A DNA stretch of 64,000 nucleotides, from the NCBI GenBank assembly GCA_037442745.1, contig JBBIPP010000003.1, positions 30,568 through 94,567 of the forward strand. Reading direction: 5' to 3'. Under the pieces are notes generated by a model, which worked only from the letters and a program-made list of their open reading frames with translations, did not search any database and had not been told where the DNA came from. The stretch comes from an archaeon. GTDB lineage: Archaea; SpSt-1190; DYHY01. Positions 34,292-41,043 of the stretch are shown here, piece after piece. A program made the translations under genes and the position numbers. The stretch's first letter is position 1. Every line of letters starts with the position of its first letter.

Positions 34292-35686
34292 GAAATGGAA
34301 CTCTTAAACCCCCCGAATGCGAGGGAACTGCTGCCTGTCGAAATAAACATCCGGGTCCTTGAAAGGGAGTGCGCGAAAGGCGACTTTGTCCCCCTTATCG
34401 TAACCTCGACCAAGCCGGATTTTTACAAACAGGCTCCTCTCTTCTCCTCTTTCGAAAAGCGGGGGCTCCCTTCAGTCGCCCTCCACACGGGCCAGCATTT
34501 TGATTCCCTTCTCGGGCACGGCCTCGACGAGTTCGGGATACGGGAGAGGATTGGAATTGACCTTCGGGTGAGGGGTGGGCTCTCGGAAAAGACCTCTGAG
34601 GTTGTGGCAAAGCTCTCCCAAGTCGCGAACTTCCTTTCTGGGAAATTCCCCGGAAAAACATTCCTGCCAATCGTACACGGGGACACCCATTCTGCAGGAA
34701 TAGTCCCACTTGGCTGGATGTTTGCGACTAACCAGAAATGCGCTCAGAACGAAGCTGGACTTCGCTCAATGCAGCCATCTTTCAGGAACGCCAAAAACAA
34801 CAGCAAGTTCCTCTCCGACCAGTTGAACGAGAAAAACTGGGTCTTGAACAGAACGGAACCCTTCCCGGAGCAGTTCGACACTTTTATCGGGAGCGCGGCG
34901 TGCCACTATCATTTCGCTCCGGTCTCCCTGAACAAGGAAAGCCTTGTAAGGGAAGGGTATCCGGAGAAAAACATTCCGGTTGTCGGGAACTCGGTTGTCG
35001 AAGCTTTCAGGCTTGCCGGAAAAAGGCGTCCCGAAAAATCCGTTTTCGAGGATTATCCTGTTCTTGAAAAAGGGGATTGGATTAGGGTCGATATACATAG
35101 GAGGGAGAATCTTCTCCCCGGGAGGTTCCTCGCAATAATCGGGGCGGTGAAGCGCCTCGTAAAAAGCGGCAGGAACGTAATTTTCATTGAAATGAATGCG
35201 AACAAGTTCGCGATTGACAGGCTCGGACTCTCGGCGGAAATTGGAAAGCTGAAATCTGAGAAGAATTTCCTCTATACCGGACTCTGGCGGGAATATGGCT
35301 CGGTTGTCGAGTTCCTAAAGAGTGGGAACTGCCGGGCTGAACTGACTGACAGCGGAAGCATGCAGGAGGAATTGAACGAACTGAAAAAGCCCCTCTCAAT
35401 AACTTGCAGGTTCTCTACCGACAGGCCCGAGACAATTTTCTCGGCAGGAACGAACATATTGGCCCCGCCAATAAGCGCGGACTATCTCAATTCCTTCGTT
35501 TCCTGGATTCTTTCAGGGGAAAGGGCAGACAAGCTGATTTCAAAAGGAAGGCGCCTTTATGGGAAAGCGCCGTCCAAGAAAATTGCCGATTTCCTCTACC
35601 GGAGAAGAAAGGATCCCGTTTTCGAATGGGCGCATGAGCGGGCAGGGGCGAAATATCGGGAGACTGCCAGTGGCTATTTCCTCTGA
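34292..35686 (+). CDS. UDP-GlcNAc 2-epimerase-like protein (divergent second paralog)
   Basis: HTGQH and PIVHGDT motifs. N- and C-terminal extensions. Start chosen at internal ATG 34292 of ORF 34229..35686. Confidence 0.5.
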   Translation, partial: EMELLNPPNARELLPVEINIRVLERECAKGDFVPLIVTSTKPDFYKQAPLFSSFEKRGLPSVALHTGQHFDSLLGHGLDEFGIRERIGIDLRVRGGLSEKTSEVVAKLSQVANFLSGKFPGKTFLPIVHGDTHSAGIVPLGWMFATNQKCAQNEAGLRSMQPSFRNAKNNSKFLSDQLNEKNWVLNRTEPFPEQFDTFIGSAACHYHFAPVSLNKESLVREGYPEKNIPVVGNSVVEAFRLAGKRRPEKSVFEDYPVLEKGDWIRVDIHRRENLLPGRFLAIIGAVKRLVKSGRNVIFIEMNANKFAIDRLGLSAEIGKLKSEKNFLYTGLWREYGSVVEFLKSGNCRAELTDSGSMQEELNELKKPLSITCRFSTDRPETIFSAGTNILAPPISADYLNSFVSWILSGERADKLISKGRRLYGKAPSKKIADFLYRRRKDPVFEWAHERAGAKYRETASGYFL

Positions 35687-36642
35687 CCAGTTAGAAGGAC
35701 TTTGGGGAAAAAAACAAGGCCAGCAAGAACAACCGGCCAGAAAGCGACAACCCGGTCTATCAGCACTGCTGCGACAGCTTCAGTCCCAGAGATTCCGATT
35801 GCCCCGTAAATTGCCGTGGAGGAGAGTTCTACTGCGCCAATTCCCCCGGGAATTGCGGAAATTACCCCTATTATTATTGAGAGGGAGAATGCCTGAGCAA
35901 TCAAAAAAGGGTTTTGGATTGAGCCGGTTATTAGGGAGAATATCAGGGAAATTCTTGAGAATTCGAGCGCCCAAATCGCCCCCGAATATGCGAGCGCTCC
36001 AGGAACCCCTTTCGGCGAGAAAAGCTTGTCCCCTTCCGTCAGGTCCCCTTCAGTTCGGAAAGTTTTCCTGAACGCCCGTGAGAGTATTGCCCTCCTAGTT
36101 TTCCTTATGAACAGGAGCCCGGTTATCAGGACAATTGCTCCCGCAAGCCCGATTGCCGGGACTGCGAGGGAAAGCCTGCCTTCTCCGAACCTGGAAAGGA
36201 ACGCTAGGGCGAATGTTGTGACGAATAAAAAGTCGAAAACCCGCTCATAGAAAAGGAGAAGCATTGCCTTTGCGGAGGGGATGTTTTCAGTCTTCTTGTA
36301 TATCAGGACTCGGGTGAGCTCCCCTGATTTCGCGGGAGTGACAAGGCCTGCCGCAATTCCGACAAGGAGAGCTTTGGCTTTTCCGAACAAGGTTGTTCTT
36401 GTTTTTCCAGAAATTTCCCTTGAGAAATAGTCCCATCTCTTCACCCTGAGAAGGATTGAGAGAAAAGTCAGGGCAGTTAGCCCGGCAAGATAAATTGGGG
36501 AGATTCTTCCGGCAATATCGAGGGTTTTTTCCGAATCCCCGAAAAAGAAAAAGGCGCCTATTGACGCAACGAATAGGAGCCCGACTCCTGCTGAAAAGAG
36601 GGCTATTTTCCTCCAGGAAACGGGGTTGTTCCTTTCCGCCAT
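35674..36642 (-). CDS. flippase-like membrane protein (UPF0104 / lysyl-PG-synthase-TM-like family)
   Basis: 322 aa, 8 TM helices. Family commonly pairs with GT2 enzymes in archaeal glycan clusters. Assignment rests on topology and context only. Confidence 0.4.
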   Translation of the reverse strand: MAERNNPVSWRKIALFSAGVGLLFVASIGAFFFFGDSEKTLDIAGRISPIYLAGLTALTFLSILLRVKRWDYFSREISGKTRTTLFGKAKALLVGIAAGLVTPAKSGELTRVLIYKKTENIPSAKAMLLLFYERVFDFLFVTTFALAFLSRFGEGRLSLAVPAIGLAGAIVLITGLLFIRKTRRAILSRAFRKTFRTEGDLTEGDKLFSPKGVPGALAYSGAIWALEFSRISLIFSLITGSIQNPFLIAQAFSLSIIIGVISAIPGGIGAVELSSTAIYGAIGISGTEAVAAVLIDRVVAFWPVVLAGLVFFPKVLLTGQRK

Positions 36643-36666: not shown

Positions 36667-37425
36667 TTATTTATAAGTCCATTTTCCGGGAAGAACGCAT
36701 CCGGACAAGAGCCCTTCCCGCGTCAATTCGGGAAAAACATCAAGCTCAAGGCTTTTTGCCGAGTCGGGTATTTTCGAGAAAATCTCCTGCGTGAACGCGA
36801 ATATTCCGACGCTAATGAGGTGGCTCTCTGCTTCCCTCGGCTTTTCGTTGAATGAGGTTACTTTCCTTCCGGAAAGGCCGACAACCCCAAACCTGGTTGG
36901 TTTGTCAACAGTTGTAAGCGCGGCGGTTCCGAGGGAATTCGTGTTAGTGTGGAAATCTATGAATTCCCCGAGGTCGAACTCGAAGAAATTGTCGCCATAT
37001 ATCAGGAGAAAGTCCCCGTCAATCTTGCCTTTGAGTTTCTTCAGGGCAGATGCTGTGCCGTTCCTATCCTTTTGCTCAACATATTTTATATCAATTCCCG
37101 AAACTCCGGAAAGCGCTTCTTTTATCCTAAAACTAAGCTCTGTCAGTGTGCAAATTGTCGCTTTAGTTACCCCCTTTTTCCGGAGGAAAGCCATTATGTT
37201 TGTTATTGTCTGGCGACCGCCAACATCTTCAAGCGGTTTTTCGTCCCCGATAAGTATTACTGCGGGAAAAGTCTCTGAAATTAGGTATTTCTCGAGAAGA
37301 GTCTCGATTGTCCTAGACCTGTTGGACTCCCTTTTCCCTGCCCCTGAGAGGGCGTCAACCCGCTTTATCAGTTCCTCCTTCAGGGTTATTGATATGCGCT
37401 TTCTCATTGGGCGGGGAAATACCAA
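36667..37425 (-). CDS. ribbon-helix-helix (CopG-like) domain fused to a sugar nucleotidyltransferase
   Basis: N-terminal RISITLKEELIKRVDALSGAGKRESNRSRTIETLLEKYL is RHH-like. The remainder, AVILIGDEK...LIYGDNFF..., is an NTP_transferase fold. Confidence 0.5.
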   Translation of the reverse strand: MVFPRPMRKRISITLKEELIKRVDALSGAGKRESNRSRTIETLLEKYLISETFPAVILIGDEKPLEDVGGRQTITNIMAFLRKKGVTKATICTLTELSFRIKEALSGVSGIDIKYVEQKDRNGTASALKKLKGKIDGDFLLIYGDNFFEFDLGEFIDFHTNTNSLGTAALTTVDKPTRFGVVGLSGRKVTSFNEKPREAESHLISVGIFAFTQEIFSKIPDSAKSLELDVFPELTREGLLSGCVLPGKWTYK

Positions 37426-37462
37426 AGTTTTTTATTTATAAAAGCAGTCTAAAAACTTCCAA

Positions 37463-38560
37463 ATGAAGGCTATTGTTCTTGCGGGGGGGAAAGGGGAAGA
37501 TCTCTACCCTCTGACTCTCACGCGACCCAAGGCGCTCGCGACAATACTGAACCAGCCGATAATTGAGAGAATAATTGACAACATGCCCAAGGAAATTGAC
37601 AAGATTTTCATTGCAACCGACCACATGGCAGGGGAGATCAAAGCGCTTTTTTCCTCAAAAGAGATGAAGCGAAAAATGGGCAGGAGAAAAATATGTGTTG
37701 TTGAGGAGGATAGGCCACTTGGGACTGCCGGGTCAATAAAGCGTTTTGAAAAGGAGATAACCGAGACGTTTCTTGTTGTCCAAAGCGATGTTGTCTCTTC
37801 AGTCGACTATTTCAAGATGATTGATTTCCATAGGGAGAGCGGGTCAATTGCGACAATGTCTTCATTCAAGGTGAAAAACCCGATCGATTACGGGATTCTC
37901 GGGGTAAATGAGGAAGGGCGCGTAATGAAATTTCTCGAAAAGCCGAAAATTGACCAGGTCTTCTCGACAGTTATCAATGCGGGGGCGTATGTTTTCGAAA
38001 AATCCATTTTCGAGGAAATCCCGGCGCATGGGGTGTGCGATTTTTCGGGAGACGTCTTTCCCCGGCTTATACGAAAAGGGGGGATTGTCTCCGCATTCGA
38101 ATTCAAGGGTTTGTGGATTGACATAGGCTCGTTCAACAACTATCTTGATGCCCACAAAAACCTTCTTGAGCGGTCAATGACTTTTTCAATTTCGAGCAAA
38201 TCTTCTGCTAGTACAGTTCCCCCTGTTCTCATAGGCTCCGGTGGAAAAATCGGCGCATGCACTCTTGGTCCGGGAGTCTCTATAGGGAACAATGTGAAAA
38301 TTGGCAAAGGTGCGAAAATCTCGAATTCAGTCATCTATGACGGGGTCTCGATTGGGGATGGCTGCCTAGTAAAGGAGAGCGTTCTTGGGAAAGGGGTTGT
38401 CCTTGGGAAGAATGTTGTTGCAGTGAACACCCTGATTGGGGATGGCGCAAAAGTGAAGGACAAAATAAAGATAGGCGCCCAGAGCAAAATTTGGCCGAAA
38501 ACGAAGGTATCAAAGGATGTTCCTGAAAAGGAATGGTTCGGTTTCCTCAAGGAAGATTAG
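37463..38560 (+). CDS. bifunctional-type sugar-1-phosphate nucleotidyltransferase with C-terminal left-handed beta-helix (hexapeptide repeats)
   Basis: MKAIVLAGGKGEDLYPLT (G-x-G motif) plus C-terminal IGSGGKIGACTLGPGVSIGNNVKIGKGAKISNSVI hexapeptide repeats. Confidence 0.7.
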   Translation: MKAIVLAGGKGEDLYPLTLTRPKALATILNQPIIERIIDNMPKEIDKIFIATDHMAGEIKALFSSKEMKRKMGRRKICVVEEDRPLGTAGSIKRFEKEITETFLVVQSDVVSSVDYFKMIDFHRESGSIATMSSFKVKNPIDYGILGVNEEGRVMKFLEKPKIDQVFSTVINAGAYVFEKSIFEEIPAHGVCDFSGDVFPRLIRKGGIVSAFEFKGLWIDIGSFNNYLDAHKNLLERSMTFSISSKSSASTVPPVLIGSGGKIGACTLGPGVSIGNNVKIGKGAKISNSVIYDGVSIGDGCLVKESVLGKGVVLGKNVVAVNTLIGDGAKVKDKIKIGAQSKIWPKTKVSKDVPEKEWFGFLKED

Positions 38561-40593: not shown

Positions 40594-41043
40594 TCTCGTC
40601 TCAAATGTCTGGATCGCATTCCCTTCGGCAAAGTCAATGCAGACAAGGAGGTTTTTTGATAATGCAGTTAGTTTGTCAAGGAAGTCTCTCTGACCTTTGT
40701 GGAGAAAGTCAAAAGTTCCAAAACAGGCAATTGTTGGATTCTTTTTTTCTCCGGAATTTTCGATTTATCCTCTCCCTCCTTCTCTTCTTTGGGAAAATGA
40801 TTTTTCTGGGAGTCTTGCTATGTATATATAATTTTCCATATGGAAATAATGGAAATAACAACAAAAGAATCCAACTTTCCATCCGAAATGTTGGAGAGAG
40901 TATCAAAAAATTCCAGTGGAAATGAAGGTTGTCCCAAAGAGAATCCAAAATCTTCCACAGGAAACAAAGGTCAAACAACAACAATAATTAAAAACCCTTT
41001 CTTCCAATGGAAAAATCCGAGAACCGGAGTTGAAGAAATAATA
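40594..41043. other. candidate replication origin (oriC): AT-rich unwinding element plus four direct ORB-like repeats TTCCA-N2-3-GGAAA
   Basis: TTCCATATGGAAA 40834..40846, TTCCAGTGGAAA 40911..40922, TTCCACAGGAAA 40953..40964, TTCCAATGGAAA 41002..41013. TGTATATATAATTTT at 40821. Immediately upstream of orc1/cdc6–polD, the classic euryarchaeal oriC arrangement. Confidence 0.5.

Follow-up and report, generated by a model that had tools for sequence, protein, structure and literature searches.

A ribbon-helix-helix domain fused to a loop-deleted sugar nucleotidyltransferase-like domain at a divergent archaeal promoter

Introduction

Does a sugar nucleotidyltransferase-like protein that begins with a DNA-binding domain still act as an enzyme, as a regulator of the promoter next to its own gene, or as both? 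We met this question in a 64,000-nt stretch of archaeal DNA (assembly GCA_037442745.1, contig JBBIPP010000003.1), here called the window, whose positions serve as coordinates throughout. A gene on its reverse strand encodes a ribbon-helix-helix (RHH) segment followed by a domain of the NTP_transferase fold, and lies divergently to a gene for another nucleotidyltransferase (Table 1). A first-pass annotation of the letters alone had proposed a one-component sensor and regulator, in which an enzyme represses its own promoter and that of its paralog depending on sugar-nucleotide pools. On balance we favour a one-component regulator in which a NikR-type RHH domain is joined to a pseudoenzyme nucleotidyltransferase domain that would sense a nucleotide sugar and control the shared promoter. 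The idea of a sensor and regulator is thus reasonable, but an active enzyme is not supported, as the catalytic loop is deleted.

Results and discussion

A fusion protein of 246 residues with two constrained domains

The open reading frame (ORF) at the locus (36667..37425, minus strand) begins with TTG and encodes the 252 aa reported at first pass. The frame exists as described, but the starts of its homologs shorten the protein to 246 aa: an ATG at 37407, six codons inside the TTG ORF, gives a product beginning with MRKRISITL. P0001, a database protein of 246 aa that shows 100% identity and derives from the archaeal metagenome-assembled genome GCA_964492285.1, starts at the same residues, as do the gene-caller predictions and essentially all homologs, including all of the close ones. 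Because P0001, the gene callers and the homolog alignment agree, this ATG was taken as the true start. It precedes the RHH segment, which is therefore not an upstream extension ahead of a true internal Met start, a possibility raised earlier. Comparison with close orthologs gave ratios of nonsynonymous to synonymous substitution (dN/dS) of 0.07-0.08 in both domains, showing that both are under purifying selection.

A NikR-type RHH domain at the N-terminus

Scanned alone, the N-terminal 47 aa match the Pfam RHH_1 model with 22.4 bits, above the gathering score of 20.5 bits. In the full-length 252-aa translation the same match (residues 10-48, or 4-42 in the 246-aa numbering; E 0.0038) reaches 17.6 bits and falls below this cut-off, and the NCBIfam NikR models match residues 9-49 only, with E 0.19-0.24. 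A profile made from 56 family N-termini (A4) matches the RHH domain of Escherichia coli NikR (1q5v) at E 2.1e-9, Pyrococcus horikoshii NikR at 1e-5 and CopG at 3e-3, and 43 of the 56 N-termini match RHH_1 individually. NikR and the window protein align collinearly (RVTITL...NNRSEAIRD and RISITL...SNRSRTIET, respectively). Across the family, the DNA-contact-type residues R4, S/T6 and T8 are conserved, and so is the turn N29-R30-S31; of the 118 degenerate members, all have S31 and 112 have R30. These profile and alignment matches indicate a genuine RHH domain, in agreement with the RHH/CopG-like N-terminus first annotated.

The full-length score below the cut-off, together with the lost catalytic loop described below, might point to a decaying gene or an annotation artefact, that is, a chance resemblance to RHH or a pseudogene remnant. 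We regard this as extremely improbable. Besides the low dN/dS in both domains and the NikR match, nine clade members (38-92% identity) keep the full architecture, and the fusion is carried by more than 120 clusters at 50% identity and by at least 420 species genomes. The conservation data effectively refute this explanation.

Loss of the signature loop from a retained nucleotidyltransferase pocket

The remainder of the protein matches Pfam NTP_transferase (PF00483; residues 63-247 of the 252-aa translation, E 4.9e-23; E 4.5e-23 with the 246-aa protein). In the AlphaFold2 model this domain has a predicted local distance difference test score (pLDDT) above 90, and its best Foldseek matches are GDP-mannose pyrophosphorylase, RmlA and the GMPPA/GMPPB complex (E 1e-18, template modelling score ~0.72). 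The fusion to an NTP_transferase fold is thus upheld. The PF00483 match, however, spans profile positions 22-223 of 245, and the N-terminal signature loop of the fold is absent. Alignments with canonical fusions and stand-alone enzymes (A1 and A8) place a 12-residue deletion at G54-D55-E56-K57, removing the loop GxGTRLxPLTxxxP.

We defined the window clade as nine members (the window protein with L002, L088, L003, L168, L169, L170, L089 and P0030). A metagenome scan for close relatives yielded just two full-length ones, L088 and L089, the other matches being ordinary nucleotidyltransferases. The deletion, removing (G)xGTRLxPxTxxxP, and a change of G-G to G-D are common to all nine members. After the loop, different residues take the Lys position (K, K, K, Q, R, D, G, N, K). 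The C-terminal WxDxGT motif, which holds the second metal-binding Asp, is absent, the window protein ending with ...GKWTYK; this motif is found in 18 of 21 plain enzymes as against 46 of 118 degenerate fusions. In enzymes of the RmlA, GlmU and GlgC type, the NTP phosphates are bound by the signature loop, in which the catalytic Arg also lies. A non-catalytic reading is supported by the deleted Arg loop, the unconserved Lys and the absent WxD motif.

On the other hand, the window protein has both the GD motif with its metal-binding Asp and the sugar-phosphate motif E-K-P. No clade member deviates at G117-T118, G138-D139, G174, E188-K189-P190, G201 or E221, and these positions are for the most part retained in the 118 degenerate fusions. 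As judged from these alignments, the residues lining the base, sugar-phosphate and first-metal sites are retained. The kept pocket, the dN/dS of ~0.07 and the loop deletion together make a non-catalytic ligand sensor likelier than an enzyme, and the window protein is most likely a pseudoenzyme whose C-terminal domain binds a ligand without catalysis.

A bifunctional 'trigger enzyme', in which an active nucleotidyltransferase represses its own and its neighbour's promoter, would come closest to the original proposal. The fold and the residues D139, E188-K189 and G117-T118 are kept, and many other family members retain the canonical GGKGTR(L/M)RPxTYExPKP and could be enzyme-regulators; PutA demonstrates the principle (PMC5293562). 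For the window protein we nevertheless find a trigger enzyme improbable, given the loss of the Arg loop in 9/9 clade members, the variable Lys and the missing WxD motif, and the active enzyme assumed at first pass is not supported.

A type II toxin-antitoxin system, with an RHH antitoxin and a nucleotidyltransferase toxin, was also considered and rejected: the C-terminal domain belongs to PF00483, not to the Pol-beta-type MNT or AbiEii nucleotidyltransferases, and the genomic context is that of glycan biosynthesis.

A conserved spacer with one palindromic TATA core

The divergent spacer noticed at first pass is present, but by the corrected start it measures 55 bp, not 37 bp. It is identical to that of L002 at 51 of 55 positions despite a dS of 0.92 between the two genes. 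A block of 34 bp within it is near-invariant across L001, L002 and L003 (33/34 identical; alignment A3), whereas the flanking genes of L001 and L003 agree at 43-50% of their third codon positions. From this comparison the spacer is under strong constraint, the silent sites being saturated.

The palindromic TATA string described earlier is confirmed, as the A/T element TTTTTTATTTATAAAAG holds an 8-bp palindrome, TTTATAAA, that is free of mismatches. L168, L169 and L170 all keep TTTATAAAT(A/G)A. The TATA element lies ~19-20 nt from each start codon in L001 and L168, and ~40 nt from that on the RHH-gene side in L169. The positions suggest that a single palindromic TATA core is likely to serve both divergent genes, giving two near-leaderless transcripts. 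The proposal of a promoter shared by both genes is thus strengthened by the conservation of one palindromic TATA element in orthologous loci.

The TATA core is bracketed by an inverted repeat, AAGTTTTT-N18-AAAAACTT, which is a weak candidate for an operator. In L089, which has the same deletion and 38% identity, GTATGC-N17-ACATAC brackets a TATA box in the shared spacer with a geometry resembling that of the window repeat. Five of six clade lineages have a single GTATGA-like half-site on the stretch from the TATA element to the start codon. A second copy of the conserved spacer block, which would suggest a regulon, was not found elsewhere in the window within three mismatches. Scans for sigma-70 promoters and terminators are uninformative for an archaeon.

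A conserved module with an atypical partner

The divergent arrangement with a nucleotidyltransferase that carries a left-handed beta-helix (LbH) is conserved in all eight clade loci examined, i.e., those listed above except P0030. Downstream of the RHH gene, and probably co-transcribed with it, is a gene for an LPG_synthase_TM-family membrane protein. This gene follows the RHH gene in seven of the eight loci, the exception being L089, and the two ORFs overlap in L168 and L169. A phosphomannomutase/phosphoglucomutase gene comes after the partner in L089, L169 and L170. Nearby in the window are two Epimerase_2 genes, a PMT_2 glycosyltransferase gene and a gene for an NAD-dependent epimerase/dehydratase, indicating that this neighbourhood is a glycan-biosynthesis cluster.

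The partner had been described as a second nucleotidyltransferase. Its NTP_transferase and LbH domains agree with this, but its loop is atypical: the signature reads GGKGEDLYPLT (37484-37516) in comparison with the canonical GGxGTRLxPLT, with the catalytic Arg replaced by Asp. Within the partner clade (48-94% identity) the loops are GEDL, GEEM, NHYL, NLRL and SRYL, while more distant homologs have the canonical G(G/A)TRL. From its loop, the partner may be an atypical or inactive enzyme. Some partner homologs (P0192, P0195-P0198, P0241 and P0256) have a TrmB-type helix-turn-helix domain (PF01978), and some of these also have a response-regulator receiver domain. DNA-binding domains have thus been joined to sugar nucleotidyltransferases more than once, with different folds.

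Such a strictly conserved module of membrane protein, RHH-nucleotidyltransferase-like protein and LbH nucleotidyltransferase could also mean that the window protein is a non-catalytic regulatory subunit. It would then work mainly by protein contacts, in a hetero-oligomer with the LbH nucleotidyltransferase like those of GMPPA with GMPPB and of GlgD with GlgC, or together with the membrane protein, and the RHH domain would be a dimerisation module or a minor DNA binder. The ORF overlap in L168 and L169, the structural match to GMPPA/GMPPB chains and the lack of a recognisable operator in the window are consistent with this, and there is a pseudoenzyme precedent (PMC11228364). We consider it rather unlikely all the same: purifying selection acts strongly on the NRS turn and on the DNA-contact positions of the RHH domain, the wider family has clear operator signatures at its own promoters, and the divergent regulator-target layout is typical of local transcription factors. 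A subunit of this kind would, moreover, be compatible with DNA binding as well.

A widespread family in DPANN archaea and CPR bacteria

In a profile search of 1.84 billion cluster representatives, ~120 of the best 150 matches are full-length fusions of 245-290 aa, with the match starting at profile position 1-3; these counts are of clusters at 50% identity. The suggested search of other archaea was made by scanning one genome for each species with the peptide pattern [IV]RNRSHAIE alone, and the fusion was confirmed at loci in at least 420 species genomes. Among the 80 loci listed of these 420, on which the taxonomy of the pattern matches rests, all belong to DPANN-type archaea (Nano-, Parv-, Aenigm-, Diaphero-, Micr- and Iainarchaeota), Altiarchaeota or the candidate phyla radiation (CPR)/Patescibacteria. 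One further fusion cluster is from Bathyarchaeia. The fusion is a widespread family and not a singular event.

Many members have a canonical signature, ILAGGKGTR(L/M)RPxTYExPKP in archaea and GGxGxKMRPFTYEMPK in CPR bacteria. Among 133 diverse cluster representatives, a signature-like loop is found in 15 and a strict loop in 7. The sources label family proteins 'sugar phosphate nucleotidyltransferase', 'mannose-1-phosphate guanylyltransferase', 'NDP-sugar synthase' or 'hypothetical', and none calls them regulators; the degenerate members are probably mis-annotated as enzymes, with the regulatory domain missed. We did not find the fusion architecture described in the literature searched, including a DPANN dark-matter review and a DPANN protein-family paper, and this absence is limited to the literature covered. 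The broader result is a large DPANN/CPR family with putative NikR-like operators, of which the window protein is one derived member and a description of which was not found in the literature or database names searched.

In the loci L008-L087, the archaeal (DPANN and Altiarchaeota) and the CPR members alike share 46-60% identity with one archaeal-type query, and both use GTATGA. The similar identities and the common motif suggest inter-domain gene transfer among ultra-small organisms. In some DPANN genomes a degenerate RHH-nucleotidyltransferase gene lies near a canonical one (L028, 435-1215; L029, 3221-4849; L032, 2158-4828; L044, 1666-4828). In these paired-copy genomes the degenerate copy is divergent to nucleotide-sugar genes, namely an epimerase and nucleotidyltransferase operon in L029 and a UDP-glucose dehydrogenase gene in L032 and L044, and the canonical copy is followed by a phosphomannomutase or 4,6-dehydratase gene. 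This looks like duplication with division of labour.

GTATGA sites at the promoters of the wider family

We analysed 130 nt upstream of 82 family genes. GTATGA/TCATAC is the most enriched hexamer there, with 67 occurrences as compared with 4.7 expected from the rest of the loci. Measured against 176 further intergenic regions from these loci, a fairer control, its density is 6.29 per kb in the 82 family promoters and 0.55 per kb in the control, an 11-fold enrichment (Poisson p 2e-46). The commonest layout is a direct repeat with a 10-bp period, such as GTATGATATAGTATGA (17 cases), and convergent inverted repeats such as GTATGA-N15-TCATAC occur too. Of 33 perfect paired sites in ~600 kb, 25 are located within 150 nt upstream of a family gene and ~4 more just upstream in the transcription unit of a family gene. 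The motif is found in 19 of 44 archaeal promoters, at a median of -23.5 from the start codon and between the TATA element and the start, and in 22 of 38 bacterial promoters. The operator of E. coli NikR is GTATGA-N16-TCATAC, with the half-site GTATGA (PMC7055735). Since GTATGA at the family promoters matches the NikR-like RHH domain, autoregulation through the RHH domain and GTATGA sites is well supported for the family at the level of sequence.

GTATGA clusters are also present away from the family promoter (L041, 4947-4972; L022, 1148-1163; L013, 6581-6606; L071, 4826-4841), and in L041 three copies directly follow the family gene and precede the next one. Such clusters may mark further regulon members. 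As for the window, it contains nine single perfect GTATGA/TCATAC hexamers in 64 kb, compared with ~31 expected at equal base frequencies, an expectation that is not composition-corrected.

Proposed mechanism and its weighing

In the mechanism that we favour, the enzyme-derived domain would bind a nucleotide sugar or its precursor without turnover, and ligand occupancy would alter the binding of the RHH dimer to the 55-bp spacer. One palindromic TATA would serve both the operon of the regulator and the LPG_synthase_TM gene and the divergent LbH nucleotidyltransferase gene. The outcome would be feedback control of a surface-glycan or nucleotide-sugar module. For the window protein we infer the DNA binding, the operator, the ligand and the sign of regulation, and likewise the repression of both promoters by sugar-nucleotide pools.

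Several observations speak against this mechanism. A search of the spacer and the rest of the 64-kb window for GTATGA/TCATAC pairs (one mismatch in total; direct spacings of 10, 11, 20 and 21; inverted spacings of 9-25) gave no paired site, so that the operator evidence of the family does not transfer directly to the window protein. The 8-nt inverted repeat around the TATA core is marginal, since dinucleotide shuffling yields one of this length in 3.2% of cases; of its right arm, L003 keeps the A-run only. The GTATGA-like half-sites of the clade are weakly above chance (~0.04 by a rough binomial estimate). Two overlapping core promoters alone could explain much of the spacer conservation, and the tight coupling to the membrane-protein gene could mean a structural rather than a regulatory partnership. 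The partner itself lacks the canonical Arg in the window lineage, which blurs what the feedback would act on. Finally, the RHH part of the AlphaFold2 monomer model has low confidence (pLDDT 54-71): helices 11-20 and 30-42 are at the places expected of an RHH domain, but the N-terminal strand is not formed. RHH domains bind DNA as dimers, and an unformed strand is usual when an obligate dimer is modelled as a monomer.

A wider reading, which we put forward tentatively and hold with less confidence than the regulator itself, would make the window gene a derived member of an apparently undescribed family that autoregulates through GTATGA. The intact members would be trigger enzymes, tying the synthesis of nucleotide sugars directly to transcription, and many lineages pure nucleotide-sugar sensors, with the window protein controlling a bidirectional single-TATA promoter of a glycan module.

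Features of the window

The coordinates of the features discussed are collected in Table 1. Elsewhere in the window, the annotated start of a Cdc6/Orc1 gene (40840) lies between the arms of a 16-nt inverted repeat (40733-40748 and 40860-40875; spaced by 111 nt, with 94% complementarity). The orthologs of this gene product are 55-75 aa shorter (413, 393 and 400 aa in comparison with 468), so its true start is probably further downstream. The repeats at this start may be origin-recognition elements of a replication origin.

Table 1. Positions of the RHH gene, its divergent partner and the elements between them in the window
Feature	Position	Strand	Remarks
LPG_synthase_TM-family membrane protein gene	35674..36642	-	Pfam E 6e-36; 24 nt downstream of RHH gene, same strand
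RHH-nucleotidyltransferase-like gene	36667..37407	-	ATG at 37407, 246 aa, stop codon 36667-36669
Sugar-1-phosphate nucleotidyltransferase-like domain	36670..37266	-	Residues 48-246; predicted non-catalytic
12-residue deletion site	37237..37248	-	Residues G54-D55-E56-K57; signature loop removed
NikR-type ribbon-helix-helix domain	37273..37407	-	Residues 1-45: strand RISITL, helix 11-20, NRS turn, helix 30-42
Divergent intergenic spacer	37408..37462	.	55 bp
Near-invariant block	37422..37455	.	34 bp; 33/34 identical across three loci
Inverted-repeat left arm AAGTTTTT	37425..37432	.	Candidate operator arm, weak evidence
A/T element TTTTTTATTTATAAAAG	37428..37444	.	
Palindromic TATA core TTTATAAA	37435..37442	.	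Perfect 8-bp palindrome within A/T element
Inverted-repeat right arm AAAAACTT	37451..37458	.	18 nt from left arm; brackets TATA core
Divergent partner gene	37463..38560	+	NTP_transferase and LbH, 365 aa (Pfam, NCBIfam)

Significance

DPANN archaea and CPR bacteria have tiny genomes with few recognisable transcription factors, and need surface glycans for host interaction. If the proposed reading is true, nucleotide-sugar pools would be linked directly to gene expression in these organisms, through a new class of sugar-nucleotide-responsive transcription factor spread across two domains of life by gene transfer among ultra-small symbionts. The family would form a natural gradation between enzyme-regulators and pseudoenzyme-regulators, from which one could learn how sensors evolve from enzymes, and the GTATGA operator would be a handle for regulon prediction. 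A nucleotide-sugar biosensor scaffold is a possible use; no further medical or biotechnological importance is suggested.

Comparison with known systems

NikR is the closest sequence relative of the family RHH domain and shares the general plan, with the RHH domain first and a domain for ligand binding and oligomerisation towards the C-terminus. The promoters of the wider family carry the NikR half-site, sometimes in the layout GTATGA-N15-TCATAC, which is close to the NikR operator (PMC7055735). The C-terminal 200 residues of the window protein, however, have the NTP_transferase fold and not an ACT-like nickel-binding tetramerisation domain, and the ligand therefore cannot be that of NikR. The commonest sites of the family are 10-bp direct repeats, whereas those of NikR are an inverted repeat, and the window clade lacks a GTATGA operator.

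The first-pass annotation knew of no characterised example. We did not find an RHH-nucleotidyltransferase fusion described in the literature searched, but trifunctional PutA, in which an N-terminal RHH domain is joined to metabolic enzyme domains and which represses its own divergent regulon, is a characterised precedent for the concept of an RHH-enzyme autorepressor (PMC5293562). The proline and P5C (pyrroline-5-carboxylate) dehydrogenase domains of PutA are unrelated and still active, whereas the enzyme domain of the window protein appears inactivated, and PutA switches by redox-dependent membrane association. PutA and NikR serve as precedents for the principle of a one-component regulator with an RHH domain.

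In its fold, its lost catalysis and its proposed retention of nucleotide-sugar binding, the window protein resembles GMPPA, a paralog without catalytic activity that regulates GMPPB through its binding of GDP-mannose (PMC11228364). GMPPA differs in that it acts allosterically within a protein complex, has no DNA-binding domain and has retained a C-terminal LbH domain that is missing from the window protein. The likeness to RmlA-like enzymes, HddC and the N-domain of GDP-mannose pyrophosphorylase lies in the GT-A-like fold and in the GTA, GD, EKP and G(I/Y) pocket motifs. Unlike short sugar-1-phosphate nucleotidyltransferases, the window protein is without GxGTRLxPLT and WxDxGT and has the extra RHH domain. 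GlgD, the partner of GlgC, is another non-catalytic nucleotidyltransferase paralog. In BirA, NadR and the TrmB-family regulators, a DNA-binding domain is likewise coupled to a metabolite-binding, enzyme-type or sugar-binding domain. Their DNA-binding domain is a winged helix-turn-helix and not an RHH, with no sequence kinship to the RHH domain, and their effector domains differ.

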